38,586 bases of DNA from Flavobacteriales bacterium (GTDB lineage: Bacteria; Bacteroidota; Bacteroidia; Flavobacteriales_D; UBA2798): contig DASPJQ010000833.1 in the NCBI GenBank assembly GCA_035628535.1, positions 1-38,586 of the forward strand, read 5' to 3'. A model generated the notes under the pieces. It was not told the origin of the DNA, did not search any database, and worked only from the letters and a program-made list of their open reading frames with translations. The translations under genes and the position numbers were made by a program. This document shows, in pieces, positions 16,819-32,456 of the stretch; the first letter of the stretch is position 1; every line of letters begins with the position of its first letter.

Positions 16819-17106
16819 ATGTTAGTAGTTACTGAAACACCTGTAGAAGTCCGCAATTACACTATCGGAGAACTGGCGCAAAAGTACGGCATTGATCCAC
16901 GAACCTTGCGTAAGAGACTGGAGCCATTTTCAGAAAAACTTGGAAAGATTATCCGCGGGCAACTGGATTACCACCAGGTATTGATTATCTTTAAGGAATT
17001 AGGCCCGCCCGGTGTAAAGGTTGTAGAGGAATCGTTAGTGGATGGATTTACCGTTGTATGCCTTGAAAAAAACAAAACAATGTACGTGTTGCCAAAAGTG
17101 GCATAA
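16819..17106 (+). CDS. small HTH-like protein (DUF4248-like), first gene of the rightward block
   Basis: YTIGELAQKYGIDPRTLRKRLEPFSEKLGK...QVLIIFKELGPP is paralogous to 17680-17910. The ATG at 16819 is preferred to the TTG at 16792. Confidence 0.6.
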   Translation: MLVVTETPVEVRNYTIGELAQKYGIDPRTLRKRLEPFSEKLGKIIRGQLDYHQVLIIFKELGPPGVKVVEESLVDGFTVVCLEKNKTMYVLPKVA

Positions 17107-17136
17107 ATTAATATCAAACACCTTTAACTCTCTTTA

Positions 17137-17165
17137 ACCTGCCTTTGACAAGGCAGGTTTTTTTA
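17137..17165 (+). terminator. rho-independent terminator
   Basis: An 8-bp stem (acctgcct/aggcaggt) with a 6-nt loop is followed by ttttttt. Confidence 0.7.
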
Positions 17166-17299
17166 TGCTTTAAAATTGCACGAAACAACATCTTTCCGCA
17201 AAATACAGCATAATTCAGCAAAACCCTTTAAATGCAGTGCAATCCGGTAAACACTTACCCGGCTTTTACACAACCTTTGCATAACAATTACACAATACA

Positions 17300-17656
17300 A
17301 TGAAATATCAAAACACCCGTGTTGTACATCCCCAGACTATGCGTTTCTGGGTAAACAATACATTAGATTTCGCTTGCGGCCTGTTGTGGCCGGGTCAAAA
17401 ATTTTCACTCCTGGAAATGCGCTGCGCCCGCAAAGGCATTGAGGAGTATTACAATCAAATCCCGCCAGAAGATTTTGCCGGGCAGATCGAAAATGAATTT
17501 TCCATTATGTGTCTGCGGATTAGTTTTCTGTCTCTTTCCTCCAGTCACATATTACCGCCATCGGAACTGTTCAGCCCTAGTCATCCCGGCAACATCGTTT
17601 ATAAAAAGCGTAATATTTTCACCACGTTCGGCCCGGTATACTATAGCCTGAACTAA
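17300..17656 (+). CDS. hypothetical protein (weakly supported ORF)
   Basis: This 118-aa ORF lies between the two HTH paralogs. I recognised no motifs and there is an overlapping alternative-frame ORF, so coding status is uncertain. Confidence 0.35.
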   Translation: MKYQNTRVVHPQTMRFWVNNTLDFACGLLWPGQKFSLLEMRCARKGIEEYYNQIPPEDFAGQIENEFSIMCLRISFLSLSSSHILPPSELFSPSHPGNIVYKKRNIFTTFGPVYYSLN

Positions 17657-17679
17657 CTAAACCAAACCATTTTTCTCTT

Positions 17680-17910
17680 ATGGAATTAACACCCAAACAG
17701 GGTGAAGGGACTACTATTGCCCTGAAACCCTACTCCACGCAGGAGCTGGCAGACCTGTACGGCATATCGGTACATACATTCAAAAAGTGGATCGCGCCTT
17801 TCAAAGAATCGCTCGGAAAAAAAATAGGCTGGTACTGGAGCATTCCCCAGGTGAAGATCATTTTTCAAAAACTTGACCTGCCCAGCGTGATTGTCATACC
17901 AAACAACTAA
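17680..17910 (+). CDS. small HTH-like protein (DUF4248-like), paralog of 16819-17106
   Basis: YSTQELADLYGISVHTFKKWIAPFKESLGK...QVKIIFQKLDLP aligns motif for motif with the first copy. Confidence 0.6.
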   Translation: MELTPKQGEGTTIALKPYSTQELADLYGISVHTFKKWIAPFKESLGKKIGWYWSIPQVKIIFQKLDLPSVIVIPNN

Positions 17911-18052
17911 GAAGTACATGCAATTTTCTAAAACAGTTTATACAAAACGATACAAAAACAAAAGTACTGAGCAAAGCGCAAACCCATGTCAGGACACGGT
18001 TTCATCTTTGTACCCTGAATTGATAACAACACATAAACACACACCTCAAATT

Positions 18053-18247
18053 ATGGACATGAGAACGCAACAGGACACCAGCACCAATATATTTCTCACC
18101 GCAGCCGTGGTGCTGGCTAACGTAGATTATTCGGGCCTGCTCGAATACGGGTTAAAGGCAGCAATAGGCGGCATGATATGGATGGGCTTTAAGCTGGCAG
18201 GCGATGGTATCAGCAATTACTTACGCAAACGCAACACAAAAAAATGA
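18053..18247 (+). CDS. small membrane protein
   Basis: From MDMRTQQD there is one hydrophobic/glycine-zipper helix (AAIGGMIWMGFKLAGDG) and a basic tail. Its stop overlaps the next start (ATGA). Confidence 0.45.
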   Translation: MDMRTQQDTSTNIFLTAAVVLANVDYSGLLEYGLKAAIGGMIWMGFKLAGDGISNYLRKRNTKK

Positions 18248-18738
18248 AGACCTGGGCAAAGTGGACCATTGGTTTGGGAACAGTTGGTGTAGGTACATTA
18301 TGCGTGTACCTGTACAGGCTCAGTAAAACCAATAACGGGCTTGATGTTATTCCAAGTGTGCGTGTGCATTCCCTTTACCCTTTCACGCTGGCGATTGATG
18401 CTGAAATCAAGAATCCGACCAACACAGCCATTACAGTTATGCAACCTTATGTAAAACTGTTTTACAAAGATACCCCGGTAGGTACATCAAACCTTGTGAA
18501 TACTGAAATACCCATACCCAAATACGGAAGTGTCAAACTGCCTCAGCCGATCATGCTGACTATACCGCTGCTTGGGTTGTTTTCCATTGGTGGTACGCTG
18601 CTGAATGATCTTACAAGCGGGCAGCCCATCAAATTAAAAGTTCAGCCCTTTACGAGCCTGAAAACACCCGTGGCGTGGAAAACAATTACGCTTGACCCGC
18701 TTGAAATAACCCTGAATAACCCTGCGCCCAAAGCATGA
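18244..18738 (+). CDS. membrane-anchored LEA_2/NDR1-like beta-sandwich protein
   Basis: An N-terminal TM (WTIGLGTVGVGTLCVYLY) is followed by a beta-rich domain with the pattern IDAEIKNPTN...V...LFYKDTPVG typical of LEA14-like folds. The call is from memory. Confidence 0.5.
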   Translation: MKTWAKWTIGLGTVGVGTLCVYLYRLSKTNNGLDVIPSVRVHSLYPFTLAIDAEIKNPTNTAITVMQPYVKLFYKDTPVGTSNLVNTEIPIPKYGSVKLPQPIMLTIPLLGLFSIGGTLLNDLTSGQPIKLKVQPFTSLKTPVAWKTITLDPLEITLNNPAPKA

Positions 18739-20717
18739 CCGCAACCGAAGGAAAATATAACACGCTAAGTCTTGCGCCCTACAGGCGCCTGTTCCCGCCT
18801 GCGCGCGTGGTTGACATCACGGTGAAAAAAAGTGCAGACGTGTCGGACACGGTGGCCTTCATTCCTGAGATCATCAGTCAAACGCGCTGGCAGGTAAAGG
18901 ATTTTGTGGAGACAGAACTGAGGGGCATGTCAACCGAGGATGCACTAATTAAATTATGGTATTGGGTCAAATGCCACATTCCATACGCGCCTGACCAGCG
19001 CGGTAAAGAGCAGGTAAAAACCCCGCGCAGGACGGTGCATGATGCCTGGCAGGGCAAAGGCTCGGATTGTGACGACATGACCACATTTGTTTCCTGCTGC
19101 GCAAGCTGGCTGGGTGGAATTAAAGAAATAATTCATACGATCTCCAAATACGGAGGCTCTGGCTGGCAGCACATTTACCCAACGGTCATTTTACGCAATG
19201 GCAAAAGGATTATCATGGACTGCGTAACAGATGCCTACAATTATGAAAAACCACCAACACAAAGAGAAGAACACATTATGGACTTAGAATTATTAGATGG
19301 AATTGACGACTGGAACGAGCTTGGCAAACTGAATTTAAAGAGCGTTGTTCAGAATGTTACCAGTGCTGTAAAAACCGCTGCCAGCAATGCGGGTAATGCC
19401 ATCCAGACAGCCGTTAAGAAAACAGGCGAAGCAATCAAGGATAAAGCGGATGATATACTGCACGCTGTCAACAAGGTTAATCCTGCAACTGTCCTTCTGC
19501 GCAACGGTGTGCTGGCTGCCATGAAGGTAAACATGATGAATGTGGCGGGCCGCCTGCGCTGGGCATACCTGTCTGATGCCAACGTTGCCAAAAGCGGCAT
19601 TGACAAAGGCAAACACGACAAACTCAAAAGCATTATGGCTAAACTGGAAGATATTTTCCACGGAGCCGGGGGCGAACCCAAAAACCTGAAAGCGGCTATA
19701 CTGGAAGGTAAGGGCAACAAAGATCATTCAGTCGCGGGACTGGACACCTTGAGTATTTATTCGCCCCTGTCTGAAGTACTGGGACCTGAGATATACCACG
19801 AAGAATATGCCAGCGTGCAGGGATTAGGTGAGCTGGGTGAAGTGGCAACAGCCACCAGCATGGCAGCAGCCACGGGAGCCATAGCCACGATTGCGGCATT
19901 GATTAAGCAGATTGGGAACCTGTTTCCCAAGGGAACGCCTGGGGCAGCAGATTTTGATGCAGGAGACTCAGAAACACCCGATGCACCCGGCACCCCTTCC
20001 ACTGCCTCGATCCTCACCACGATTAGCAGTGCAGTCAATACCGTTAAACAGGTTTTGCCTGTTGTGCCCGGCAAACCTGTAGTGCCGCCTCCAACGCACG
20101 GGCCGGTATATGTGACAAAAGAACTGCCCGCGTTGGTTGCTCCCGCTAAAACAGGTGTTTCATTGACTCAGCAGCGTAACGGGGCCGTCCCAGCAGCACC
20201 CGCAGTCACTACACAGTTTTCCCCTCAAACCCTTCCCGTGCAAGACGAAAACACGCAGGTTTTTGTAAAGCCCACGGTTGCACCGCCACAAAATTTTGTG
20301 CCCATGCCCGATGATGCTGTAAAACCTGCCACAAACACCGATGATAAAAAACCTGCCGCAAAACCTTCGTGGGTGCTGCCCCTTGCCATCGGGGGCGGAA
20401 TCCTTGTACTGGCAGGAGCAGGCTACATGATCTACCGTGCCTCGCAAAAAAAGAAGCTGAAAGGCCATAGCAGCGATGCTGTAGACGGAACGGGTGATGA
20501 GATGGGCTATGTACTGGTTGAGGAAACAAGCCCGTCAGAAACGCCCAAAAAGCCTGAAACGGAAACAAGCCCGCTTGAAGGTTTTGTACTGGTAGAAGAA
20601 ACAAACCCCACGCAAGCACCACTAAAAGCAGAATCCAGCCCGCCCGAAGGTTTTGTACTGGTTGAGGAAACAAGCAACGAAGAACCTGAGCAGCTAACGG
20701 CAGTACCACTTATGTAA
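18735..20717 (+). CDS. transglutaminase-like cysteine protease domain protein with Pro/Ala-rich linker, TM anchor and triple (G/E)G(Y/F)VLVEET tail
   Basis: A Cys-His-Asp context is present (GKGSDCDDMTTF ... WQHIYP ... IIMDCVTD). The TM helix WVLPLAIGGGILVLAGAGYMIY is followed by RASQKKKLK. Three repeats read GYVLVEETS, GFVLVEETN and GFVLVEETS. Confidence 0.65.
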   Translation: MTATEGKYNTLSLAPYRRLFPPARVVDITVKKSADVSDTVAFIPEIISQTRWQVKDFVETELRGMSTEDALIKLWYWVKCHIPYAPDQRGKEQVKTPRRTVHDAWQGKGSDCDDMTTFVSCCASWLGGIKEIIHTISKYGGSGWQHIYPTVILRNGKRIIMDCVTDAYNYEKPPTQREEHIMDLELLDGIDDWNELGKLNLKSVVQNVTSAVKTAASNAGNAIQTAVKKTGEAIKDKADDILHAVNKVNPATVLLRNGVLAAMKVNMMNVAGRLRWAYLSDANVAKSGIDKGKHDKLKSIMAKLEDIFHGAGGEPKNLKAAILEGKGNKDHSVAGLDTLSIYSPLSEVLGPEIYHEEYASVQGLGELGEVATATSMAAATGAIATIAALIKQIGNLFPKGTPGAADFDAGDSETPDAPGTPSTASILTTISSAVNTVKQVLPVVPGKPVVPPPTHGPVYVTKELPALVAPAKTGVSLTQQRNGAVPAAPAVTTQFSPQTLPVQDENTQVFVKPTVAPPQNFVPMPDDAVKPATNTDDKKPAAKPSWVLPLAIGGGILVLAGAGYMIYRASQKKKLKGHSSDAVDGTGDEMGYVLVEETSPSETPKKPETETSPLEGFVLVEETNPTQAPLKAESSPPEGFVLVEETSNEEPEQLTAVPLM

Positions 20718-20745
20718 AAACATTTAAACACGAAATAAAACAAAT

Positions 20746-21408
20746 ATGAGCAATAATTCTTACGAAAAGAAAGCCGTCAAAAAAGGTCTGCTTGGCTCGG
20801 TCAACGAAAGCCCGGCAACCAAGGGCAATATTTCATCCACACTCACACAAACCGGGCTTGACCTGCTTTTGGGAGGCATTGCAGGCAGCTTTGTGGGGAG
20901 CCTTGCAGGACGATATTCCCTGCTTGGCGGGGCAGTGGTAACTGGCGCAAGCTATTACATGGGAAGCCGCTTAGGAGCATCCTTTGGCATCGGTATCATG
21001 TCGGGAGGATATTTCAGCATCGTAAACGGTGTAGGTAGTCTTGAAGGGACAACAATGGACAACATCAAAGCGCGCTCCAAGGTGTTTGCCGAAGGTCTGA
21101 AACAAAAACTATTCCTGGACAAGATTCTCAAAAGCAAAAAAACCGATGCTGCCACAACAACCACTTCTGCGACTGCGGCACAATCCCAGCCTGTAAGCGG
21201 AACCGAACAGGTACGGTATTTCATGTACCCCCAAAGCGATGCGCAGGTGCAGGGACCGGGCGAGCTGGATATGTCTGCCCTTGACCGCCTCAATGCACAG
21301 GTAGCCGAAAGCGCAAAGGCATATAAAGCCCAGTCCAAAGAGAATCCGCAGCAGGTTTCAGGACTTGCAGGCGTACTTGGTGACCTGCTCACAGAACGCA
21401 TACTCTAA
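20746..21408 (+). CDS. glycine-zipper membrane protein
   Basis: LLLGGIAGSFVGSLAGRYSLLGGAVVTGASYYMGSRLGASFGIGIMSGG is followed by a Thr/Ala-rich, helical C-terminal half. Confidence 0.6.
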   Translation: MSNNSYEKKAVKKGLLGSVNESPATKGNISSTLTQTGLDLLLGGIAGSFVGSLAGRYSLLGGAVVTGASYYMGSRLGASFGIGIMSGGYFSIVNGVGSLEGTTMDNIKARSKVFAEGLKQKLFLDKILKSKKTDAATTTTSATAAQSQPVSGTEQVRYFMYPQSDAQVQGPGELDMSALDRLNAQVAESAKAYKAQSKENPQQVSGLAGVLGDLLTERIL

Positions 21409-21516
21409 CCCCCGAAGAAAATATCAAAACACTTTCCCGCTGGGGCCAACACCTATAGCGAGCAGGGATAACTCACGCATAAAAATTTAAAAAACACACA
21501 TTAAAACACACACATT

Positions 21517-22319: not shown

Positions 22320-22694
22320 ATGAGTAAAACGCTTAAAAAACGCTTCGATATTCTGGTTACCGATGAGGAAGGCAAGTTTTCAGAAACCTTTGAACTGGAC
22401 AAGGACATTACGGCAGTTAAAGGTCTGCTGCTGGCTTCTGACCGTGATGACCTGCTTTATTTCAGGGGCAGCCAGAAAATCCAGATCAATTCCGAAGAAA
22501 TTTTCCCCGAAGACTACGAATCAAAACTGCTCATGTCGGGCATTAACGTAGCCCCTGGCGAACGGTTTTATGACTTAGGTGGAGTTGGCACGGGCAACCG
22601 CGTAGTTAAGGTGGAATTTAAAGACAACCAAACCACTCAGGCAAGTTTTGAGCCTTACAGGGTATCGCTTTACCTGGACTGTATCACCAATTAG
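22320..22694 (+). CDS. hypothetical beta-rich protein (candidate structural)
   Basis: This 124-aa product shows an alternating beta-strand pattern (VVKVEFKDNQTTQASFEPYRVSLYLDC). Confidence 0.55.
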   Translation: MSKTLKKRFDILVTDEEGKFSETFELDKDITAVKGLLLASDRDDLLYFRGSQKIQINSEEIFPEDYESKLLMSGINVAPGERFYDLGGVGTGNRVVKVEFKDNQTTQASFEPYRVSLYLDCITN

Positions 22695-22704
22695 TTGTAA
22701 GATC

Positions 22705-23175
22705 ATGTTCAGGGATAAAGTCATATCACGTAAAATCATAGTCAACAATCAGGAAATGGTGTATTTCTCCATTCGCCTGCCGGATAATGCCACTCAGATG
22801 ATCGGTGTTGAATATGGCGTAAGGTTTTTAGGAGACGTGTCATTACCGGAGTCAGCCGATAGCCACGTCAGCAGTTTTGCAATTGCGCTGCCTGTAACTG
22901 TGGGCAACTTAAGGCTGGAGCATCCCGGATGCAGCGGACTGTTTTATTCAACAAGCGTAAAAGCTCCTGATACCCTTATAGGCTTCGGTGATTTTTCTAT
23001 AGCGGCCTTGTTTAAGCCGCAGGTTTTCACCCACGCAAAAAAAAACCTTGAAGATCCTGTACTGGTTCCAAAACAGGCAAGATTGATTACTGGTATTTAC
23101 CAAAACATAGCACGCACCAGACATGAACTTTTGGTGCACCTGTGGTATGCTATCGGAAAAGGAGGTACAGCATGA
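22705..23175 (+). CDS. hypothetical beta-rich protein (candidate structural)
   Basis: The ATG at 22705 (MFRDKVISRK) lies 11 nt after the previous stop. The stop overlaps the next start. Confidence 0.55.
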   Translation: MFRDKVISRKIIVNNQEMVYFSIRLPDNATQMIGVEYGVRFLGDVSLPESADSHVSSFAIALPVTVGNLRLEHPGCSGLFYSTSVKAPDTLIGFGDFSIAALFKPQVFTHAKKNLEDPVLVPKQARLITGIYQNIARTRHELLVHLWYAIGKGGTA

Positions 23176-23525
23176 ATGCCGCTATCATTCCTTTTTACAT
23201 CGACAGCCGCATGAAAGAGCAGGGCCATTGCAACGGTTACGTCATGCGGGTAAAACATTACGTGATTGGCCCGCGCCAGACTGTTAAGGTCCCGGCTTAC
23301 GGTGAAATTTTTATCCTGCTCGAACCTGTACCCGATGTGAAGATAGAAAGTGATTTAGGTGTTTTCTCCAATACTGGAATGGCACCGGAGCAGCAGCATG
23401 AACACACCGGGCAGATTCTACTAACCAACCTGAGCAGTAACGGTAATTGCGACGTGCAGTTTGTTCAGGCCATTCCTTTAGATGCACACCCTGAGGATTG
23501 CACACCCTGTAATAATACCCAATAA
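23172..23525 (+). CDS. hypothetical beta-rich protein (candidate structural)
   Basis: The ATG at 23172 is preceded by aaggagg and overlaps the upstream stop (ATGA). The product has a cupin/jelly-roll-like strand pattern (GEIFILLEPVPDVKIESDLGVF...GQILLTNLSS...VQFVQAIP). Confidence 0.55.
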   Translation: MNAAIIPFYIDSRMKEQGHCNGYVMRVKHYVIGPRQTVKVPAYGEIFILLEPVPDVKIESDLGVFSNTGMAPEQQHEHTGQILLTNLSSNGNCDVQFVQAIPLDAHPEDCTPCNNTQ

Positions 23526-23527
23526 CC

Positions 23528-24340
23528 ATGAGAGAAAAATTTGAACAAAATAAAGTAAACCTGCTCCAGCGCTATTTACAACAGCAGGCAGAAAAGAATG
23601 CCTCAAGGTATTTTGAAATATACGTGGACAACCTCAAGGTCGTGCCAAAGACCAATGACGTAAACGAGTTTGAGACCTATCATGAGTTTATTACGCCCGA
23701 TACTAAGCTGCTCAAAATATTGATTTATTCCACCTCTGCTACTTCTCCCAGGAACGAGCCGCATTATTACTATTTTGCTGACGAAAACCCTGTGCAGCCT
23801 GCGGTGCAGACATTAAGCGGGGTTGAGATTGACCAGCGGCTGAGTGAAAAAATTTCAGCCGAACGGCAAAAGTGGGAGGCAGACCAGCAGGCGAAAGAAT
23901 TTTCCGAAACACGTAAAAAACTTTCCGAAGCCGAAGAATACATAGAGAAGCTGGAAAGCCAGCTAAGCGAATACAAAGGCAAAAAGTTGCACTGGGGCGA
24001 TGTGAATCTGGGGGAACTGGCCTCAGTGATGCTCGAAGGTTTTGTAAGGCGCAACCCGCAACTGCTCGCCAAACTGCCGGGAGGTGAAAATCTGGCAGGC
24101 ATTATTGAGATGGACAACAAGGAAAAATTACAGATTTCCCAGCAGCCCGTTGCAGAAGCCAGTTTTTCAAAAAAGAGCGATGAAGTCTCGGCAGAACACG
24201 GGCCGTACATCCAACTGTTAAAACAGCTTGAAACCTGTTTTTCGCAAGGGGATTTAAACACGGTCATGAAAATACTCGGTGTGCTCATTGAGCAACCCCA
24301 GCACCTTCCCACAGTAGCAGACCTGTTAGGCATCAACTAA
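23528..24340 (+). CDS. coiled-coil protein (scaffold-like)
   Basis: The central region is a long charged helix (SEKISAERQKWEADQQAKEFSETRKKLSEAEEYIEKLESQLSEYKGKK). The function is inferred. Confidence 0.55.
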   Translation: MREKFEQNKVNLLQRYLQQQAEKNASRYFEIYVDNLKVVPKTNDVNEFETYHEFITPDTKLLKILIYSTSATSPRNEPHYYYFADENPVQPAVQTLSGVEIDQRLSEKISAERQKWEADQQAKEFSETRKKLSEAEEYIEKLESQLSEYKGKKLHWGDVNLGELASVMLEGFVRRNPQLLAKLPGGENLAGIIEMDNKEKLQISQQPVAEASFSKKSDEVSAEHGPYIQLLKQLETCFSQGDLNTVMKILGVLIEQPQHLPTVADLLGIN

Positions 24341-24378: not shown

Positions 24379-24561
24379 ATGAGCAAATTTACCTACAACA
24401 TCACCCTTTCAGCGGTGAGTGAAAAAGAAGCTGAATCAAAAATGCGCGCGCTTACAGTGCTGGCAGCGCGCCTTACTGAAAAGGAAATTTCCAAACTGGC
24501 CGACATCATTCAAAACGACCCGCAAAAAACTGCCCTGGCAAAAAAAGCACTCGGAGTTTAA
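24379..24561 (+). CDS. small helical hypothetical protein
   Basis: This 60-aa ORF is in the operon frame and lies 3 nt before the next start. Confidence 0.45.
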   Translation: MSKFTYNITLSAVSEKEAESKMRALTVLAARLTEKEISKLADIIQNDPQKTALAKKALGV

Positions 24562-24564: not shown

Positions 24565-25356
24565 ATGACCACACCCGCAACCACATATCCATCCGTTCCC
24601 GCCCAGACTGGCATTGCACCCGTATCGCCCAATGCAGTGCCAATGCCTGCTGTGGTTCCTGCGCAATATGTGGCGCCTTACGCTACTGTGCCACCTGCTA
24701 ATGCAGCAAGTCAAAAATCCTCTATAAAGGAAACGGTGATTTACGGATTGATTGGTGTGGCGGGTGCAGGGATTACTTTTTTACTGCTGCGCAAGGTGTT
24801 CCGTGATTTCCGCTCAGGACTGGAAGAAAAAAAGAGTATGGACACGGGCAGCGAAGCCAACACAGCCAAGCAGATTAACAAAGCCCTGTACGATTACTGG
24901 ACCGGAACTGACGAGGAAGAACTGCGCAGGATACTGAGCAGTGTCAAATCACAGCAGCAATGGCAAAAGATCGGGAATTCCTACCACAGCATGTACAACA
25001 AATACCTGATGACGGCACTGGAGGAGGAATTGTCAACCACGGAGTTTAACGAAATGAACGCGATCATAAACTCCAAGCCGGACAAGGAAGGCGGTGCCGT
25101 GGCTTCGGAGGTGCAGATAGCCAACTGGGCAAAACGCCTCAATGCCGCAGTCAACCTTTGGTACTTGGGAATGATACCGGGAACGGATGAGGCAGCGATT
25201 AAAGCCGTGTTCATGGAAATACCTTCCCAATCGGTTTACGCTAAGGTTGCGGGCAAATACGAAGCGGAGTATGGCACCAAATGGCTCGATGACTTAAAAG
25301 GTGATATGGACGATTGGGACGATTATATAAAGATCATTACAGCAAAACCACATTAA
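24565..25356 (+). CDS. single-pass membrane protein
   Basis: A Pro/Ala-rich N-terminus precedes a TM helix (VIYGLIGVAGAGITFLLL) and a helical C-terminal domain. Confidence 0.6.
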   Translation: MTTPATTYPSVPAQTGIAPVSPNAVPMPAVVPAQYVAPYATVPPANAASQKSSIKETVIYGLIGVAGAGITFLLLRKVFRDFRSGLEEKKSMDTGSEANTAKQINKALYDYWTGTDEEELRRILSSVKSQQQWQKIGNSYHSMYNKYLMTALEEELSTTEFNEMNAIINSKPDKEGGAVASEVQIANWAKRLNAAVNLWYLGMIPGTDEAAIKAVFMEIPSQSVYAKVAGKYEAEYGTKWLDDLKGDMDDWDDYIKIITAKPH

Positions 25357-25358: not shown

Positions 25359-26339
25359 ATGCAAACAGTACAAACCCATGATACAGTTATGCCGGGTGCA
25401 ACCTCTGCGGCAAATCCGGCAACCGCTGCGCTGGTTCCTGAAAAAAAGAAGAACAGTAAAGTAAGAGCAGCCATCATTGGGGTGAGTGTGGTGGCGGCTG
25501 GGGTTTGCGGGTATTATTTTTTGTGGCCGCTTTTCAGGCGCAAAGGCACCTCAAATAACAGCAGCGTTGCACCGCAAGCCACCAGTAACACTTCAACCCA
25601 AACCAACAGCTACACCCCTTCCCAAACCAGCACTGCACCTGCAAAATCTGTTACCCCGGCACGAAACGATAATTTTCCTCTGAAGCAAGGCAGTAAAGGA
25701 CCAAACGTAACCATGCTTCAAAACGCGCTTATTGCCAGATATGGCAAAAGTATCCTGCCCAAATACGGTGCTGATGGAGATTTTGGAGCAGAAACAGTTG
25801 CCGCATTGAAAAGCAGGGGACTTTCCACGCCAGTAGATCAGGCAACATTTATTTCACTCACCGAAGGAACTAAAATAGATCCTGTTCAGTACGCCAAAAA
25901 CATTGCAGCGGCTGTACTATTGGGATTCGATAAAGTGCTGCCCTTGCTTCAAAAGATTAAAACAGCCCAGCAGTACAAGGACGTTTCCAACCAGTTCAAG
26001 GAAATACGTATAGGACTTATCCGTTACCAAAGCCTGCTTTCTGCCATGTTTCGCCTTTATACAGAATCAGGCCAGCAAAGCCAGTTAAGAAAGGCATTCA
26101 CAAACATGGGCTTAATCTATAAACCCGATGAGGATACCTGGAAGCTGCCTGATAATCTTTCGGGGTTTGAATTAATCACTACGCAGATCACGCACGTGTG
26201 GCCCGATCCCCAAACTGCTGTCCAGGTACCACCCAACATGGTACTGGGGCAGGAAATCGGGCGGCAGGATGATTTTGTCGCATTTGAAAACGGGGGACGC
26301 AGATTCCTTGTACCTGCTGCACATGTGCGCTATACCTGA
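25359..26339 (+). CDS. membrane-anchored peptidoglycan-binding domain protein
   Basis: A TM helix (AAIIGVSVVAAGVCGYYFLW) and a Ser/Thr linker are followed by a PG_binding_1-like repeat (LKQGSKGPNVTMLQNALIARYG...DGDFGAETVAALKS). Confidence 0.7.
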   Translation: MQTVQTHDTVMPGATSAANPATAALVPEKKKNSKVRAAIIGVSVVAAGVCGYYFLWPLFRRKGTSNNSSVAPQATSNTSTQTNSYTPSQTSTAPAKSVTPARNDNFPLKQGSKGPNVTMLQNALIARYGKSILPKYGADGDFGAETVAALKSRGLSTPVDQATFISLTEGTKIDPVQYAKNIAAAVLLGFDKVLPLLQKIKTAQQYKDVSNQFKEIRIGLIRYQSLLSAMFRLYTESGQQSQLRKAFTNMGLIYKPDEDTWKLPDNLSGFELITTQITHVWPDPQTAVQVPPNMVLGQEIGRQDDFVAFENGGRRFLVPAAHVRYT

Positions 26340-26371: not shown

Positions 26372-26824
26372 ATGAGGCTAATACGCTACATCGCGGTACA
26401 CTGTACCGACACCCTTGCATCAGCAACGGTTGAATCCATTAAGAACTACTGGAAAAATCACCTGAAATGGAAACGTCCCGGCTATCACTACATCATCAAG
26501 GCCGATGGCGAGGTGGTAAAGCTGCTTGACGAAGAAAAAATTTCAAATGGCGTTTTGGGTTTTAACCCTGTTACGGTAAACATTTGCTACATCGGTGGCC
26601 GCACAAAGGAAAAAACCAAAATTGATACGCGTACCGAGGCGCAAAAAGAATCCATGTTTGACCTGCTGGTTGAACTTTCCGAGCGATACCCTGAAGCAGA
26701 GATCAAGGGACATTGCGAGTTTCCCGGTCAGGGGGGCAGGACCTGTCCCAACTTCAATGTGAAGGAATGGCTTAGGAATTACACGCCTAAACTGGAGGAC
26801 AACGACCTGGATATTGCCGCTTAA
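26372..26824 (+). CDS. N-acetylmuramoyl-L-alanine amidase (amidase_2/PGRP, T7-lysozyme-like)
   Basis: Motifs IAVHCTDT, GYHYIIKADGEV, NICYIGG and GHCEF...TCPNFNV are present. Confidence 0.85.
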   Translation: MRLIRYIAVHCTDTLASATVESIKNYWKNHLKWKRPGYHYIIKADGEVVKLLDEEKISNGVLGFNPVTVNICYIGGRTKEKTKIDTRTEAQKESMFDLLVELSERYPEAEIKGHCEFPGQGGRTCPNFNVKEWLRNYTPKLEDNDLDIAA

Positions 26825-27480: not shown

Positions 27481-27499
27481 ACTTTTAAATCCATACACA

Positions 27500-27721
27500 A
27501 TGAAACAAAACGAAAAAAACAAAACAAAACGCGATGAACTGAATGCCTTCCTTGATGAACTCAGCCAAATCCTGCTTGGTTCACTCAGGGAAATTCTTTC
27601 AACTGAGCCGTCAAGGGAACAACAGTCACCGCCATCGCCTGAACCCCCGCTGGTGATACAGGTCGTTTTCAAACCAAAGAAAGGGGGAATTCTGCGCAGG
27701 TTTATCAACTGGCTCTGGTAA
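27500..27721 (+). CDS. small hypothetical protein
   Basis: This 73-aa product has a charged N-terminus and an SPPSPEPP segment. It is adjacent to the next start. Confidence 0.4.
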   Translation: MKQNEKNKTKRDELNAFLDELSQILLGSLREILSTEPSREQQSPPSPEPPLVIQVVFKPKKGGILRRFINWLW

Positions 27722-27970
27722 ATGAAAAAGGGCTTTGACATTTTAAGGGACAAGAACGGGTATTTCAATATCCGGGAAACAGTGACGCTTGTATTTGTTG
27801 TTGTGATCCTTGTTAGCTGGATTGGGCAGCAGTTCTTCGGACTTGCTGTACCGGAATATATATTTTACTCGTTCGTGTCCCTTGTCGGGAGTGGCTGTTT
27901 TGGATACTCCTTTGAACGAAAACAGATAAAAAACAAATTCAAAAATTTAAAAGAAGATGACAGCGATTAA
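27722..27970 (+). CDS. holin-like two-TM protein
   Basis: Two TM helices (TLVFVVVILVSWIG and IFYSFVSLVGSGCFGY) precede a highly charged tail (KQIKNKFKNLKEDDSD). It sits within the lysis block. Confidence 0.45.
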   Translation: MKKGFDILRDKNGYFNIRETVTLVFVVVILVSWIGQQFFGLAVPEYIFYSFVSLVGSGCFGYSFERKQIKNKFKNLKEDDSD

Positions 27971-28604
27971 ACAATTATTATTTACCGCACTTGCATTAAG
28001 CCTTTTGGTGAGCCTGTATTTCTTTTCCTGCTCCCCGGCTAATGATCCTTCCACTCCCAGCACAAACGTCCCTGCAAAGCAGATCAGGGCAAAGCAACAA
28101 AACATTGCAAAGGTTTATCAGCTAAGGGCGCAAGGGCTACAGGCCAAAAATGACAGCCTGCAAATGCAGATTTCTCGTAGCCAAGTCGATTTAAAAGTAT
28201 TGCGCAAACAAGTACGCGAATTGAAATTTTCGCTTTCTCAAAAACTGAAGGTTAAAACTGAAAATGATACGGGACAGTTGGCACCAGAACGCGCTAGTTT
28301 AAAAACGGAAGTGGCCAGCCTCATTAGTTTAACAGACCAGCAGGACAGTATTTGCCAGCAAACTATCGGGCAATACCAGCAGCTTGTATCAGTTAAGGAC
28401 ACAATCATTCAAAGCTGTATGTACCGCACATTTCAGACTGACAGCCTGCTTTCCGAATCACTGGGAGTACAGCTTCAACTGGAAAAACAGTTTAATGCGC
28501 AGGCCAGACAGCTAAAAAGAAGAGGGAATGCCGTCAGTGCTTTAAGTGCCGGGCTGCTTGTATTCTCTACTTCGTCACTCATTCTTCTGTTAACCCGCCA
28601 CTAA
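27957..28604 (+). CDS. unimolecular-spanin-like protein (lipoprotein signal, coiled coil, C-terminal TM)
   Basis: It has an N-terminal signal with Cys (LLVSLYFFSCSP), a long Gln/Leu-rich coiled coil and a terminal TM helix (LSAGLLVFSTSSLILLL). Confidence 0.45.
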   Translation: MTAIKQLLFTALALSLLVSLYFFSCSPANDPSTPSTNVPAKQIRAKQQNIAKVYQLRAQGLQAKNDSLQMQISRSQVDLKVLRKQVRELKFSLSQKLKVKTENDTGQLAPERASLKTEVASLISLTDQQDSICQQTIGQYQQLVSVKDTIIQSCMYRTFQTDSLLSESLGVQLQLEKQFNAQARQLKRRGNAVSALSAGLLVFSTSSLILLLTRH

Positions 28605-28610
28605 AAAAAT

Positions 28611-28793
28611 ATGAAGGAAAAATTGATTGTTTCCTCCTGTTCCCTGATCGCCTCGCTGGCCTGTTATTTCTATGCCCGGCATGTAGGTAAGGATGAAGTG
28701 CCCTATGTGATGATTGGCGGCTTTATCGGGGCTTACATCGGGGAAACGCTGGTAAGTTTCATCAGTAAAGACAACGATAATAACCCTGACTGA
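28611..28793 (+). CDS. small two-TM membrane protein
   Basis: IVSSCSLIASLACYFY and VMIGGFIGAYIGETLV are followed by an acidic tail. Confidence 0.4.
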   Translation: MKEKLIVSSCSLIASLACYFYARHVGKDEVPYVMIGGFIGAYIGETLVSFISKDNDNNPD

Positions 28794-28800
28794 AAACGCT

Positions 28801-29565
28801 ATGGCTATAAAAATTACAGACCAAGGTTCCAACCTCAAAATTGAAGTTGATGATTCGGCAAGGCTGGTTGCAAAGTCTTCGGTAAAAAGTGTTGCCATTA
28901 TCGGGGATTTTATCAAGATTCAAAGTGACGCATGTTGCGCGCCCTGGGATTATTTGCCTTTCAGTGAAATCAACGAACCGGAAACTGAAACCATTGAGCA
29001 AATGCGCGATGCAATAGGCGACCTGTTATTTCAGTACCAACCCTCAACACCAACGGAGGCCGGACTAGCAACCGAGGCCCGGCAAAATGAAGCTATTGGC
29101 AAGCTGGAGGAGATAAAGACTACAATTACAACCAACCTTTCGGGAAAAGCTACCGAGGCATTGCAGAACGACCAGGCAACCGCGCTGCAAAATATTTTCA
29201 CGCTTCTGGGAGCAATCCAGACCACTGTCACCAGCGCAGCGGCCGCGCAGGCTACCATTGGTAAGCAAAATGATACCATCACCTTAATTAGCAACCTTGG
29301 CGCACAGCTCACCTTGCTACAGGGGCTTTTGATTTCGCTCATTGATGAACACCTGTTTTTGCTGCCTCCTTCGCGCACAGAGGACGTAACTGCTGAATTA
29401 CGCTATGAAGGTTTTGCCTTGCCCGGCTCACTCGATGCTGCGCCTGTCTGGGCAATCCGAAAACGGGCTGTATTCCCGCCTAACATAGTGGTTTATTCCT
29501 GGGCAGCCGGCTCGCGGACTAAATCACAGGTTTGGAACAATCGCGCAATGCTGGCCTATATGTAG
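28801..29565 (+). CDS. fibre/spike-like protein with three-fold ATEA(R/L)QN-type repeats
   Basis: The central segments ATEARQNEAIGKLEEIKTTITTNL, ATEALQNDQATALQNIFTLLGAIQTTVTS and ATIGKQNDTITLISNLGAQLTLLQ resemble repeats seen in phage fibre proteins. The C-terminal domain is beta-rich. Confidence 0.5.
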   Translation: MAIKITDQGSNLKIEVDDSARLVAKSSVKSVAIIGDFIKIQSDACCAPWDYLPFSEINEPETETIEQMRDAIGDLLFQYQPSTPTEAGLATEARQNEAIGKLEEIKTTITTNLSGKATEALQNDQATALQNIFTLLGAIQTTVTSAAAAQATIGKQNDTITLISNLGAQLTLLQGLLISLIDEHLFLLPPSRTEDVTAELRYEGFALPGSLDAAPVWAIRKRAVFPPNIVVYSWAAGSRTKSQVWNNRAMLAYM

Positions 29566-29605
29566 AATTTTTTACTCAATTATCTAACCTCTTAACACCA
29601 TTCAC

Positions 29606-30019
29606 ATGAAATCAAAAAGTAAATCCCGCAAATGTGCAACACCCCTGCATATCCGGCAGGCTGGTCATAACCTGAAGGTCAGGCACAGTTCAAAGGCGGG
29701 AACAATTCTTGCCACACTTGGCAAACGCGACAAGATCAGGCGTGTCAATGCCGGGTGCGTGGACGGGCTGGCAGGGGTGGTAAAACTCAAAACCACCCGA
29801 ACAAAGAATGCCACCAAAACCCTGTATGCTGTACCTGTCAGCGAATTTAAAAAAATTCAGGGATGTTCGATGAAAACTACGCGTAAAGGCCGCAGGCTTG
29901 CAGGTACAACAGGCGGAACTTTCAGCCTGAGTGCAAAACAAAAGCGTAACCTGCCTCCTCAACTGCAAAAGGCAATTATCAACCATCACCGAAAGCAAGG
30001 TAAACGAATTGTGAATTAA
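29606..30019 (+). CDS. highly basic Lys/Arg-rich protein (possible nucleic-acid-binding)
   Basis: This 137-aa product is very rich in K/R throughout (KSKSKSRK, KGRRLAG, HHRKQGKR). A strong terminator follows it. Confidence 0.5.
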   Translation: MKSKSKSRKCATPLHIRQAGHNLKVRHSSKAGTILATLGKRDKIRRVNAGCVDGLAGVVKLKTTRTKNATKTLYAVPVSEFKKIQGCSMKTTRKGRRLAGTTGGTFSLSAKQKRNLPPQLQKAIINHHRKQGKRIVN

Positions 30020-30027
30020 TCACCAAC

Positions 30028-30070
30028 AACCTGCTGCAATGAAATAGTTGCAGCAGGTTTTAATCTTTTG
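30028..30070 (+). terminator. rho-independent terminator
   Basis: A perfect 12-bp stem (aacctgctgcaa/ttgcagcaggtt) with an 8-nt loop is followed by a T-rich tail. Confidence 0.75.
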
Positions 30071-30073
30071 AAC

Positions 30074-30673
30074 ATGCAGCAGGAAGAAAACTTAAACCAG
30101 CAGGTCAGGGAGGAAATCAAAAAGCTGAAAGAGGAATTAGGATACAAAAGCCTCTCAGGTGACAAGCCTGATAAAACACCCGAAGCTGAAAACGAAGGTG
30201 AGAAGATAACCGAAGGCCCTCATATTCCTCAGATGAAACTCTCCTATAACCGCCCGCCTTTAACCGATATGGTCCAGATCGACCGCAGCGAGGTAGCGGC
30301 AAAATACCTGAAAGCCCTTTTTGAACCCGGCAGTATTGATCTTCAGGAACGGTTTATTGTTCTTTTTCTCAACAGGGCAAATTACGTGCTGGGTTATCAG
30401 ACGCTGGCTTTCGGGGGATTGACAAGCGTGGTAGTTGATGTAAGGCTCATACTGGCTTCGGCCATTAAGTGCCTTTGCACTTCCCTTATCCTTTGCCATA
30501 ACCATCCAAGCGGGAACTTAAAGCCCAGTACAGGCGACCGCCTTGTTACCGACCAGCTTAGAAATGCGGCCAAATACCATGAGATTTCCGTTGTAGACCA
30601 TATTATTCTCACCAGTGAAGGTTACTTCTCAATGGCTGATGAAGGAATAATTAATGCCGAATATTATGTATAA
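30074..30673 (+). CDS. radC: RadC-like JAB/MPN domain protein (DUF2466)
   Basis: FIVLFLNRANYVLGYQTLAFGGLTSVVVDVR ... LILCHNHPSGNLKPSTGD is the JAMM-like HxHPSG motif of RadC. Confidence 0.85.
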   Translation: MQQEENLNQQVREEIKKLKEELGYKSLSGDKPDKTPEAENEGEKITEGPHIPQMKLSYNRPPLTDMVQIDRSEVAAKYLKALFEPGSIDLQERFIVLFLNRANYVLGYQTLAFGGLTSVVVDVRLILASAIKCLCTSLILCHNHPSGNLKPSTGDRLVTDQLRNAAKYHEISVVDHIILTSEGYFSMADEGIINAEYYV

Positions 30674-32456
30674 AGTACAGCAATACGAAAAATACCTGCC
30701 GGAATTTACCGAATCAATGCTCCACCGTTATAATCTTCTGAAATCATTCAGCAATAATTTTAAAGAGGAAAGCGTGGCAGCGAGGGAGCTTGACAGGTTA
30801 TTGAGTGAACAACTGGAACAAAAATTCAAAGGCAGGGCGAGCAGCAGTAATCCCAAAGTGTCAACAAAACGAAATAACGGCTCAAAAACAGATGAAGCAG
30901 CAGCGTATGCAGCCATGCGTAAGTACCTGGAACCTTTGGTCGGACAGGATTACAGCATCAGGGACATTCAGGACATCGCAAAAGATTCAACGCCTGAAAT
31001 TACATTTAACATCAGGGGTGATAAAATTCATGTTACCAAACTGGCAGGCCGGAAAGTAAAATACAATTTCGGCCTTCGCGCATTTTATGTTCAACTGCGT
31101 GATGCGCTGGGCATTGCTCCTGCCAGCCTTCCGGAACTGGATAAAATTTCAAAACAAGAGACAACGGCGAAAAAAAAGCCTGTGCCGCAGAAAAAACAAA
31201 CGGATGCTGCCGCGGAGTCCGAAATTCTGCCAGACAAGCAGGAGAAAACCCCTGAAATGGTAGAAAGACTCAGTGAAGAGGTGCGTTTTATCAAGCGGTA
31301 TGCTTTGCTGGATGGAAAAGTAAAGACCCCTGAGCAGATGCGGGCATTTACCAATGCTGTTAGAAAGGCCATACTGGAAAAGCGCATCAGGAAGTTTTCG
31401 CCCTATGCCGAACAGATCATTTACATTCAGGACAGGCTTGTGAATTGGTGCAATTCGGTTAAAACCCCTGAAACTGTCGCAGTCAATCCCGAAGTGTTGC
31501 AGGAGTTCAGGAACATTGCCAGCACCGAACAATTGCTTCTGTCAGGAACCTATCTCAAACGGTACATGAACATTCAGGGCAAAGAACTGGACAAGGAAAA
31601 AGCCGGGCGCCTGCACGATCTAATTAAAAAAGCAATTCAGCAGGATAAGATCACCAAAAGCGATCCATACCGCCAAAGGCTCGAAAATGCCCTTAAATCG
31701 CTTCACAGATTCGTAAAATCGGCCAAGGCTACCGATACCCTCAAAATGCACCCAACGGCCTTAAATGGCATAAAAACGGCCCTTGAAGGCTGTCCCTGTG
31801 AGGAGGAGGATTTGGGATACATGGGAAAAAAGGCCGGGGCACATGCAGGTGTTACGCCACATGTGCCCCAAATAGTAATAAGCAGCGTTGATTTTGAAAA
31901 CTTTCAAATCCAGACCCTCGGCCTTTTTGGCCGCTGGTATAATTTTATCGGAGATGCCAGCCGGGGATTCAATGCCATGATCTTTGGCAAACCCAAGCTG
32001 GGAAAAACCTACCTCGCTATTGACTTCGCAGGCTATCTGGCTCATTTTTTCGGTCCTGTTTTGTACGTAACAAGGGAGGAAGGGTTTAGCGGAACGTTCC
32101 AGCAAAAGATCATCGAACAGGGCGTGGCTCACCCGGAGTTATATATTGCCAGCGAAATACCGGAAGATTTTGCCCCTTATGATTTTGTATTTTTTGATTC
32201 GGCAACCAGGTTAAACTTTGTTCCCGGTGATATCGGCCATTACAAGCGTCTTTATCCTGGCAAAACCTTCGTGTACGTGTTTCAGGCCACCAAAGACGGT
32301 AATTTCAGGGGCTCGCAGGAGTTTGAGCATGATGTAGACGTTGTTATTGAAGTTTATGATCTTGGTAAAGCGCGGCAGTATGGCAGATTCAATCAGGGCA
32401 GTGAGATGAATATTTTCGACAATGACGAAACGATAGATTTTCAGCAGGCTGCGTAA
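30654..32456 (+). CDS. 600-aa protein with C-terminal RecA/RadA-like P-loop ATPase domain (replication/recombination candidate)
   Basis: Walker A is GKPKLGKT and Walker B is YDFVFFDS. The RadA/Sms-like strand FQATKDGNFRGSQEFEHDVDVVIEV is present. I recognised nothing in the N-terminal ~400 aa. Confidence 0.65.
   Translation: MPNIMYKVQQYEKYLPEFTESMLHRYNLLKSFSNNFKEESVAARELDRLLSEQLEQKFKGRASSSNPKVSTKRNNGSKTDEAAAYAAMRKYLEPLVGQDYSIRDIQDIAKDSTPEITFNIRGDKIHVTKLAGRKVKYNFGLRAFYVQLRDALGIAPASLPELDKISKQETTAKKKPVPQKKQTDAAAESEILPDKQEKTPEMVERLSEEVRFIKRYALLDGKVKTPEQMRAFTNAVRKAILEKRIRKFSPYAEQIIYIQDRLVNWCNSVKTPETVAVNPEVLQEFRNIASTEQLLLSGTYLKRYMNIQGKELDKEKAGRLHDLIKKAIQQDKITKSDPYRQRLENALKSLHRFVKSAKATDTLKMHPTALNGIKTALEGCPCEEEDLGYMGKKAGAHAGVTPHVPQIVISSVDFENFQIQTLGLFGRWYNFIGDASRGFNAMIFGKPKLGKTYLAIDFAGYLAHFFGPVLYVTREEGFSGTFQQKIIEQGVAHPELYIASEIPEDFAPYDFVFFDSATRLNFVPGDIGHYKRLYPGKTFVYVFQATKDGNFRGSQEFEHDVDVVIEVYDLGKARQYGRFNQGSEMNIFDNDETIDFQQAA

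Follow-up and report, generated by a model that had tools for sequence, protein, structure and literature searches.

We analyzed a 38,586-nt contig, in full, from the metagenome-assembled genome of a Flavobacteriales bacterium (phylum Bacteroidota; contig DASPJQ010000833.1 of assembly GCA_035628535.1), hereafter called the window, and focused on a block of plus-strand genes at positions 16819 to 32456. An earlier sequence-only reading had taken this block for a candidate nontailed, membrane-containing virus or a new kind of mobile element. Our results uphold that view: we found no tailed-phage genes and no packaging or Rep genes, two proteins of the block model as jelly-roll folds, and the better conserved of the two is unmatched among phages. 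We consider it reasonably probable that a tailless temperate virus with an internal membrane, from an unclassified family of Bacteroidota viruses and known from its genes alone, has integrated here and that the block forms its backbone. The element family is widespread and unannotated, has no match in deposited phage genomes, and most likely belongs with the tailless membrane-containing phages.

A scan of one genome per species yielded 280 loci in Chitinophagaceae, Ferruginibacter, Flavobacteriales, Sphingobacteriales, and Bacteroidia, and a metagenome scan added 259 further loci. The carriers are Bacteroidota genomes, by the hundreds, from soil, freshwater, and wastewater, and the cultured ones include Flavisolibacter nicotianae X7X, Flaviaesturariibacter aridisoli, and Chitinophagaceae bacterium IBVUCB1. 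We then compared every window protein with 84 loci by tblastn, which provided the synteny and identity counts given below and in Table 1. The order of the genes from the second small helix-turn-helix (HTH) gene (17680) to the fibre gene (28801) was the same in essentially all 84 loci, with unrelated flanks, and it recurred in the additional metagenome and context loci. The conserved unit measures at least 15.6 kb. Some genomes harbor 2 to 3 copies, mutually 73 to 75% identical in DNA; two elements lie 34 kb apart on a contig of a "Chitinophaga pinensis" metagenome-assembled genome (MAG), and two lie 44 kb apart on another contig (L119/L163). The GC content is 44 to 51% in the block versus 32 to 41% in the flanks, and the relatives of the element likewise deviate from their own flanks. 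Three element contigs (L007, P0006, and L063) were binned into Synechococcus, Microcystis, and Brevifollis MAGs; these assignments are probably errors, since every other named host belongs to the Bacteroidota, and Bacteroidota that accompany cyanobacterial blooms could, for example, be their source.

The best-conserved gene of the element encodes a 239-aa protein (identical to NCBI protein VD905_19630), with a median identity of 69% across the 84 loci and about 70% across bacterial families. It has 1,595 homologous clusters at 90% identity, almost all from Bacteroidota where the source is named. The top 120 clusters are all ∼239 aa long and 68 to 88% identical, and at 50% identity, an exhaustive profile search returned 464 clusters, of which 270 had E values below 1e-10. 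The adjacent gene encodes the second-best-conserved protein (124 aa, median identity of 59%), followed by the 218-aa protein at 26824 and the 60-aa protein at 24379 (58% each), whereas the 175-aa open reading frame (ORF) 22648-23175 reaches a median of 27%. A tblastn search of 50,697 deposited phage genomes with the 239-aa protein gave no match, even with E values of ≤1 allowed. The core proteins belong to no Pfam, PHROG, or NCBIfam family, and our literature search found no description of the element; the "Charybdis elements" of a preprint turned out to be unrelated 4.6-kb archaeal elements.

We modeled these two best-conserved proteins with AlphaFold2. The model of the 239-aa protein, based on a 69-sequence alignment (predicted local distance difference test [pLDDT], 77.8; predicted template modeling [pTM] score, 0.67), consists of ∼78 helical residues followed by an 8-strand beta-sandwich. 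In a Foldseek search of the PDB, its best match was the penton protein of phage FLiP (2e-4), then came the capsid protein of Emiliania huxleyi virus 201 (EhV-201), brome mosaic virus (BMV), and the capsid protein of Sulfolobus polyhedral virus 1 (SPV1; 6oj0_A, Foldseek probability of 0.98, TM-score of 0.45 on the target), and after these the grouper iridovirus (SGIV) capsid protein, cowpea chlorotic mottle virus (CCMV), and cucumber mosaic virus (CMV), with nonviral sandwiches interspersed. In BFVD, 23 matches fell below 1e-3, the named ones being mostly CRESS-virus capsids and iridovirus proteins. No sequence-level link of the 239-aa protein to solved structures was detected. The 124-aa model (pLDDT, 89.1) is a compact 8-strand sandwich, and its matches include the capsid proteins of PR772, Paramecium bursaria chlorella virus 1 (PBCV-1), BMV, and CCMV, all with E values above 1e-3. 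A double jelly-roll was seen in neither model, each having one sandwich; the 156-, 117-, and 270-aa proteins were not modeled. Paralogy among the small structural proteins was discarded, as hhalign found no relation between them, the 239-aa and 124-aa proteins included. Both modeled proteins thus have jelly-roll-type folds, and the best matches of the larger one are viral capsid and penton proteins. At the fold level, the models support two adjacent, highly conserved jelly-roll-type proteins, as a tailless icosahedral virus would encode.

We next searched the block for the hallmarks of other mobile elements, several of which the sequence-only reading had reported as missing. Pfam, PHROGs, and NCBIfam gave no significant match to terminase, portal, HK97 capsid, tape-measure, sheath, or baseplate proteins, except that the 660-aa protein weakly matched a tape-measure PHROG (1.3e-4) through low-complexity sequence, and no block ORF matched a capsid family. 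Likewise, no tailed-phage genes occur within ∼10 kb of the element in relatives whose neighbors carry precomputed Pfam annotation. Only two ORFs of the block exceed 350 aa, namely, the transmembrane-anchored, low-complexity 660-aa protein and the RadA-like protein, and neither is portal- or terminase-like. The single P-loop noted earlier was also recovered: the sole in-frame Walker A motif of the block (GKPKLGKT, at 31986) lies in the RadA-like protein. Since this motif is of the RecA/RadA type, we conclude that the block has no large terminase. A profile of full-length homologues of the RadA-like protein matched RadA/Sms among PDB sequences (1.7e-4, including the region of the RadA KNRFG motif), and a profile of the ATPase domain matched RecA, RadA/Sms (2.4e-6 over the whole domain), and RAD51 paralogues, with no match to FtsK/HerA or viral packaging ATPases in the PDB. 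We regard this protein as a candidate replication or recombination helicase; its gene is the last of the co-oriented block at every complete right end examined. A rolling-circle (HUH) Rep had no family match in the block. Nor did the conserved unit show a conjugative apparatus: no relaxase, coupling protein, VirB4/TraG, or Tra family was found in it, TraM and DUF4138 being found outside, in one genome.

We next turn to the lysis and membrane functions. Among the genes named in the sequence-only reading, the amidase_2 endolysin, the RadC-JAB protein, and the RadA-like ATPase all gained family or profile matches, while the holin-like and u-spanin-like proteins show the sequence features described for them and no family matches; from these features, we infer holin and spanin roles. 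The domain of the 218-aa lysis-associated protein was also detected by tblastn in crAss-like, Bacteroides, Pseudoalteromonas, and Bdellovibrio phages. That reading had also counted at least ten products with membrane helices or glycine zippers, and hydropathy gives about 10: strict transmembrane segments in the products starting at 18244, 18735, 24565, 25314/25359, 27722, 27957 (two), and 28611 and weaker ones at 18053, at 20746, and in the C terminus of 26824.

Candidate roles can be proposed for several other products. The 660-aa protein is a candidate virion-associated cell-wall or entry enzyme, one of its relatives matching the Pfam transglutaminase-like family DUF553 weakly (1.2e-3). Homologues of the variable 156-aa protein range from 114 to 313 aa, and it is a candidate spike or host-recognition protein, and the charged, heptad-like 270-aa protein is a candidate scaffold or assembly factor. 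The fibre-like repeat protein recognized earlier is borne out by its homologues (186 to 988 aa), whose ends are conserved and whose repeat-rich middle changes length, and it is a candidate receptor-binding fibre. In the "Chitinophaga pinensis" MAG (L006 16793-19132; L008 16855-19821), the fibre reaches 779 to 988 aa, versus 186 to 254 aa elsewhere, and the extra length consists of many internal tandem repeats of ∼110 to 150 nt. The very basic 137-aa protein that ends the operon might condense DNA.

The ORF map and translations show about 25 co-oriented plus-strand ORFs from 16792/16819 to 32456, as tightly packed as reported. The quoted ATGA sites at 18244 and 18735 are 4-nt overlaps of the ORFs 17891-18247, 18244-18738, and 18735-20717, an internal ATG at 23172 overlaps the stop of ORF 22648-23175, and TAATG is present at 26824. 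The coordinates first given (16819-32456) need a correction: the conserved unit starts with the HTH and "fam16" genes (16792-17910), and its right end in the window may extend past three cargo genes to the tyrosine integrase at 36705-37877. Strong plus-strand intrinsic terminators at 17136-17159 and 30028-30059 (the latter with a 13-bp stem), together with a hairpin and T-run after the ATPase gene (which ends at 32456), mark off three parts of the block: a short regulatory unit, a long morphogenesis/lysis operon (17.3 to 30.0 kb), and a RadC-ATPase unit (30.07 to 32.46 kb). The strict Bacteroidota −7 promoter motif (TAnnTTTG) was not found upstream of the block ORFs. In the noncoding region left of the first HTH gene, we found a 21-nt perfect tandem repeat (AAAAATGCGTAGAAATACGGT, two copies) at 16316-16357 and an imperfect inverted copy of it near 16471-16491, 114 nt downstream. 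These repeats could be candidate operators or iterons, and no similar DNA was found in related loci; a pair of ∼130-nt related units at 15850-16230 was dropped, as a BLAST self-comparison gave no support.

The left end varies among relatives. In 38/84 loci, it carries a regulator combining an XRE-type HTH (HTH_3, 4.7e-7) with an ImmA/IrrE metallopeptidase (Peptidase_M78, 3e-19); the window has no such regulator, nor a remnant detectable by profile search. ORF clustering of the loci also revealed "fam16," a conserved 187-aa protein, of which the copy in the window is truncated or diverged. Variable cargo, including restriction-modification and defence-like genes, occupies fixed positions. In the slot between the regulator and "fam16" (L054 763-5707; L037 1-2504; L073 1372-5811), the cargo differs between relatives, with a 1,164-aa kinase-like and helicase protein accompanied by a phospholipase D-like partner, or a histidine kinase; in L037, the regulator gene is immediately preceded by one for a type IIG restriction-modification enzyme. 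Downstream of the fibre gene, relatives carry Dam/N4-N6 methylases or a 1,500- to 1,860-aa fusion of RadC, an N6-methylase, and a strawberry-notch-type helicase, the helicase part of which gave AAA_34, ResIII, and Helicase_C_4 matches in Pfam scans. Because RadC is the N-terminal domain of this fusion in many relatives, we interpret the RadC protein of the window as acting in anti-restriction or establishment. When regulator, cargo, and anti-restriction genes are counted, the element is probably ∼17 to 23 kb long in many genomes, that is, larger than 16 kb. In the window, three low-GC genes between the backbone and the integrase (32627-35800) may be cargo; their products had no family match in Pfam or PADLOC.

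We then looked at the ends of the element. All short repeats were rejected as attachment sites because none was consistent across loci: the 12-nt AT-rich TAAATTTTGTAT at 16786/32602 is no longer than chance matches elsewhere in the comparison, and a 15-nt repeat in F. nicotianae was borderline, with its right copy inside a small ORF. The 260 nt after the ATPase stop contain no terminal sequence shared by nine elements, several of which have only an intrinsic terminator in common. tRNA-linked insertion was set aside, tRNAs lying near the right end in just 2/60 loci, and the large number of unrelated insertion sites makes integration at dif unlikely. The integrase of the window is possibly the integration module of this copy, its membership being uncertain. 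In F. nicotianae, a tyrosine integrase with 23.5% identity to it directly follows the ATPase gene, beside tRNA-Leu, and the small ORF next to it is predicted to be Xis-like. At seven other right ends, no integrase is present within 10 kb, and variable, often defence-like genes are found instead. The two integrases gave no tblastn matches in eight further right-end and Persicobacter loci, and the flank proteins of the window have no homologues at other right ends. The simplest reading is that the integration modules are exchangeable and lie beyond the variable cargo region. In F. nicotianae (L085 16606-21458), TraM, DUF4138/TraN-like, and HTH_17 genes were observed ∼5 kb beyond the element integrase and tRNA-Leu; such conjugative-transposon neighbors were not seen at other right ends.

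A search of PLSDB extended the family to Persicobacter psychrovividus, in which two replicons encode a distant match of the 239-aa protein (28% identity, 6e-11). The neighborhood is syntenic but rearranged, with the capsid-like gene, a ∼126-aa gene, a strawberry-notch helicase, an ATPase, and an amidase; the ATPase is a stand-alone 174-aa protein that aligns with the ATPase domain of the window protein (29% identity). The two copies (L092, L176, and L177) reside in one strain on pPP10 and pPP1 (a plasmid of 53 kb and a replicon of 1.07 Mb) and are 93 to 97% identical over 16 to 17 kb with sharp ends (left, AAWTTCTAC...; right, ...GCATTTGGGGGG), which shows that a related unit of such size moves or recombines as a block. 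Terminal inverted repeats and a target duplication were not found in these copies. A central 6- to 7-kb segment is swapped for a nonhomologous one, which indicates modular exchange.

Comparison with known tailless viruses yields likenesses and no match. The Helvetiavirae (Matsushitaviridae, with P23-77 and IN93; Simuloviridae; Sphaerolipoviridae) are tailless, have an internal membrane, and assemble their shell from two small single jelly-roll proteins whose genes are neighbors. The element resembles them in its two adjacent proteins that model as jelly-rolls, its unit of 16 to 23 kb, its many membrane proteins, and its lysis cassette. The smaller members have genomes of 16 to 19 kb and are temperate, as described in the Simuloviridae profile of the International Committee on Taxonomy of Viruses (PMC12642351). 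In contrast to them, the element has no A32/FtsK-HerA-type packaging ATPase, no sequence similarity to deposited phages, and hosts from another phylum; its 239-aa protein also bears a long helical N-terminal arm, and the shell role of both jelly-roll proteins is a candidate one. The Portogloboviridae come close through SPV1, whose single jelly-roll capsid protein is among the best matches of the 239-aa model. SPV1 has a genome of ∼20 kb, an internal membrane, and no recognizable packaging ATPase. However, its host is archaeal, it has no bacterial-type lysis cassette, and the likeness is at the fold level only, with no detectable sequence relationship.

Viruses of the FLiP/phiCjT23 type infect Bacteroidota, have tailless lipid-containing virions, and are temperate, their prophages having no integrase of their own and relying on XerC/D at dif (PMC9719478). 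The element shares with these Finnlakeviridae-type viruses its Bacteroidota hosts and a 239-aa model whose best PDB match is the FLiP penton protein. Yet they have single-stranded DNA genomes of 7.6 to 9.2 kb, a rolling-circle Rep, and a double jelly-roll-type capsid, whereas the element is at least 15.6 kb long, has neither as far as found, and inserts at unrelated sites. As for Tectiviridae, Corticoviridae, and Autolykiviridae (PRD1 and PM2; Bamfordvirae), the general layout is similar, comprising a shell protein, a small vertex jelly-roll, a spike or fibre, numerous small membrane proteins, a virion-associated enzyme that degrades the cell wall, and genes for endolysin, holin, and spanin, but the element has no recognized double jelly-roll, FtsK/HerA ATPase, protein-primed polymerase, or rolling-circle Rep. 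The element therefore fails to fit any named group, having no recognized double jelly-roll, FtsK/HerA ATPase, Rep, or sequence similarity. Its architecture most closely resembles that of the single jelly-roll, membrane-containing Matsushitaviridae, Simuloviridae, and Sphaerolipoviridae, combined with that of the packaging-ATPase-less Portogloboviridae.

We propose the following mode of action. The small HTH proteins would silence the long operon, joined in most relatives by the XRE-HTH/ImmA-IrrE metallopeptidase, and stress would lift the repression. Expression of the 17.3- to 30.0-kb operon would then produce a particle whose shell consists mainly of the 239-aa jelly-roll protein with a helical arm, while the 124-aa jelly-roll encoded next to it would be a second component of the shell or its vertices. 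Host recognition would fall to the variable 156-aa protein and to the fibre with its repeat shaft. The ∼10 small membrane proteins would populate an internal lipid membrane, and two of them, the membrane-anchored transglutaminase-like enzyme and the peptidoglycan-binding protein, may act at entry. Release would occur by lysis, through the amidase, shown by its family match, and the putative second hydrolase-like, holin-like, and u-spanin-like proteins. As no FtsK/HerA packaging ATPase is present, the particle would assemble around its genome, as has been proposed for SPV1 of archaea, and would not be filled by a pump. In a new host, the 30.07- to 32.46-kb unit would act on DNA, RadC providing anti-restriction (in relatives, it is fused to the N6-methylase and strawberry-notch helicase or replaced by Dam-type methylases) and the RecA/RadA-type ATPase serving replication or recombination. 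Integration is not encoded by the conserved backbone and appears to depend either on host functions or on exchangeable modules, such as the tyrosine integrases of the window and of F. nicotianae.

Several observations weigh against a virus. No particle or excised form was seen, so to speak of a virion we infer it from the genes; no packaging ATPase was identified; and in ∼170 loci, including whole contigs of 9 to 22 kb, no terminal overlap indicative of a circular form was present, all long contigs carrying chromosomal flanks. Neither the window nor five reconstructed complete relatives have convincing direct or inverted repeats as attachment sites. Ortholog clustering of all flanking ORFs in the 84 loci gave no conserved integrase, and no conserved transposase or replication initiator was found in the element family. 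The fold evidence is modest, with TM-scores of 0.2 to 0.45 for the matches of the 239-aa model, partly because of the helical arm; the best structural matches of the 124-aa model are the nonviral jelly-rolls GOLD, CUB, and TasA, with Ena also among its generic jelly-roll matches, all at E values above 1e-3, and jelly-rolls are common outside viruses. The 239-aa protein has just two matches in the IMG/VR set. Finally, because the regulator is absent and half of "fam16" matches alone, the copy in the window may be defective or impaired in regulation. Even so, a temperate tailless internal-membrane virus best explains, together, the host-independent GC content, scattered insertion, stress-type regulators, anti-restriction and lysis genes, variable spike and fibre, and membrane and jelly-roll proteins.

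We weighed four other explanations. The observations just listed would partly suit a domesticated or defective virus-derived module, for instance, a decaying prophage or a particle resembling gene transfer agents or bacteriocins, which would have ceased to spread autonomously: all copies seen reside in chromosomes or large plasmids, neither a free form nor a conserved integrase or replication initiator was found, and the window copy has no regulator and a truncated "fam16." We find this unlikely, given that the GC content is unlike that of the host, insertion sites are unrelated, diverged copies coexist in one genome, cargo is variable, anti-restriction genes are useful only on entering a new cell, and near-identical copies occur on two Persicobacter replicons, all of which point to ongoing horizontal movement. 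It is quite improbable that the element is a pleomorphic membrane-vesicle virus that, like plasmaviruses or pleolipoviruses, has no capsid; its genome would leave in host-derived membrane bearing proteins of the element, with the jelly-rolls as spike or matrix proteins. The many small membrane proteins and the missing packaging ATPase would fit, jelly-roll domains are common in spikes, the 124-aa model best fits adhesin/fibre-type jelly-rolls, and the BFVD matches of the 239-aa model include one to a pleolipovirus protein (rank 18); however, a holin/endolysin/spanin-type cassette argues for lytic release rather than budding, and the element already has separate variable spike and fibre candidates. 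Moreover, ∼70% identity of the 239-aa protein across families suits a lattice-forming shell better than a spike, because spikes usually vary fastest.

The missing packaging and replication hallmarks could also reflect a satellite or nonviral mobile island that carries lysis and surface or appendage genes and needs a helper phage or conjugative element. The F. nicotianae copy does lie near TraM/TraN-type conjugative-transposon genes, and the island around the window copy contains Thoeris, an HTH_17 gene, and an integrase, but the conserved unit contains no relaxase, coupling protein, VirB4/TraG, or Tra family, Tra or tailed-phage genes are not recurrent neighbors in the 84 loci, and candidate genes for shell, spike, fibre, and lysis are present in the element itself, so we give this explanation little credence. 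We give hardly any to a fragment of an ordinary tailed prophage with head and tail genes too diverged for recognition. Most ORFs indeed have no family match, and the 660-aa protein has its weak tape-measure PHROG match; against this stand the only Walker A motif being of the RecA/RadA type, just two ORFs of >350 aa (one transmembrane anchored and of low complexity, the other RadA-like), two best-conserved proteins that model as jelly-rolls and not HK97 folds, and the same compact gene set in all 84 loci with no extra head or tail genes nearby.

Returning to the integrated tailless internal-membrane virus, we tentatively go further, with a proposal whose chances we put a little short of even: the elements would be proviruses of a widespread, unrecognized Bacteroidota virus family, possibly a new higher-rank lineage, with icosahedral membrane virions made of a single jelly-roll protein with a helical arm and assembled without a packaging ATPase. 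If true, this would be a bacterial counterpart of the archaeal portoglobovirus and sphaerolipovirus architectures, and a bacterial lineage that builds single jelly-roll shells without using a packaging ATPase would bear directly on the evolution of jelly-roll capsids and of Varidnaviria. Tailless membrane-containing phages are badly undersampled, and few families are known. Detection tools miss such viruses because none of the structural genes is in any marker set, and if virions are made, a whole temperate virus group of a major bacterial phylum is now annotated as "hypothetical proteins." The elements also carry defence systems and very large anti-restriction proteins, which matter for gene flow and phage resistance in Bacteroidota, and the existence of cultured hosts makes them experimentally accessible.

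Table 1. Features of the window, in order of position (counts are loci, out of 84, in which a gene is present)
Feature	Positions	Strand	Remarks
TonB-dependent receptor	1830-4256	-	ordinary Bacteroidota chromosome, left third of window
T9SS sorting-domain protein	4720-5106	-	chromosomal left third
Pyruvate kinase	5133-6578	-	chromosomal left third, which also holds DoxX and TauE genes
Type I Thoeris, complete anti-phage system	9700-12813		ThsA (9700-11148), then three ThsB TIR genes
Minus-strand cluster	12958-15743	-	HTH_17/excisionase-like gene and five ORFs without family match
Left border	15744-16791		∼1 kb, noncoding; site of the XRE-ImmA/IrrE regulator gene in relatives
First small HTH protein, MerR/HTH_17-like	16819-17106	+	paralogue of 17680-17910; family profile E value, 2.3e-17
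"fam16" homologue	17300-17656	+	N-terminal half matches alone (E value, 2e-10; profile positions 20-87)
Second small HTH protein	17680-17910	+	start of long morphogenesis operon; 72/84
Small hydrophobic protein	18053-18247	+	inside ORF 17891-18247; 75/84
164-aa membrane protein	18244-18738	+	76/84
660-aa protein	18735-20717	+	N-terminal transglutaminase-like Cys-His-Asp domain, low-complexity linker, transmembrane anchor (residues 548-566), C-terminal EGFVLVEET repeats
220-aa glycine-zipper membrane protein	20746-21408	+	82/84
Candidate major capsid protein, 239 aa	21517-22236	+	helical N-terminal arm (residues 1-78) and 8-strand jelly-roll-type beta-sandwich
Second jelly-roll protein, 124 aa	22320-22694	+	compact 8-strand sandwich; candidate second capsid or penton protein
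Poorly conserved protein, 156 aa from probable start	22705-23175	+	within 175-aa ORF 22648-23175
117-aa conserved protein of structural cluster	23172-23525	+	from comparison with relatives
270-aa protein	23528-24340	+	charged heptad-like sequence suggests a coiled coil
60-aa well-conserved protein	24379-24561	+	median identity, 58%
Membrane protein	24565-25356	+	Pro/Ala-rich N terminus, one transmembrane segment, annexin-like repeat (Pfam Annexin, 4.1e-8)
Membrane-anchored protein with peptidoglycan-binding domain	25359-26339	+	PG_binding_1, weak; endolysin PHROGs, 3e-9
N-acetylmuramoyl-L-alanine amidase (endolysin)	26372-26824	+	Pfam Amidase_2, 1e-14; phrog_822, 1e-41
Second lysis-associated domain protein, 218 aa	26824-27480	+	phrog_3000/phrog_33083, 1.5e-37; C-terminal hydrophobic tail
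Holin-like protein, 82 aa	27722-27970	+	two hydrophobic segments, charged C terminus (putative)
u-spanin-like protein, 215 aa	27957-28604	+	N-terminal lipoprotein-type signal ending ...FFSC, coiled-coil middle, C-terminal transmembrane segment (putative)
60-aa membrane protein	28611-28793	+	68/84
Fibre-like protein	28801-29565	+	conserved N- and C-terminal domains, repeat-rich shaft of variable length
Very basic (Lys/Arg-rich) 137-aa protein	29606-30019	+	2/84; followed by terminator 30028-30059, which ends the morphogenesis/lysis operon
RadC-like JAB protein	30068-30673	+	family match, 3.7e-35
600-aa RadA-like protein	30654-32456	+	repeat-containing helical N-terminal region, C-terminal RecA/RadA-type ATPase (∼190 aa)
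Three low-GC (32-33%) genes	32627-35800	+	secreted/lipoprotein-like, N-terminal signal-like sequences; between backbone and integrase
Tyrosine integrase	36705-37877	-	Phage_int_SAM_5 and Phage_integrase; 4.2 kb downstream of ATPase gene

The surroundings of the block suggest that the element lies inside or beside a larger genomic island, which would comprise the Thoeris system, the minus-strand cluster at 12958-15743, and the integrase. The five ORFs of this cluster without a family match have no homologue in the 84 first-fetched genome loci or at the other right ends examined. The 38,586-bp window contains no tRNA genes and, left border included, no Rfam families. The Thoeris system lies ∼4 kb left of the element, and its ThsA protein combines SIR2 and STALD domains (PADLOC ThsA1, 3.4e-205).

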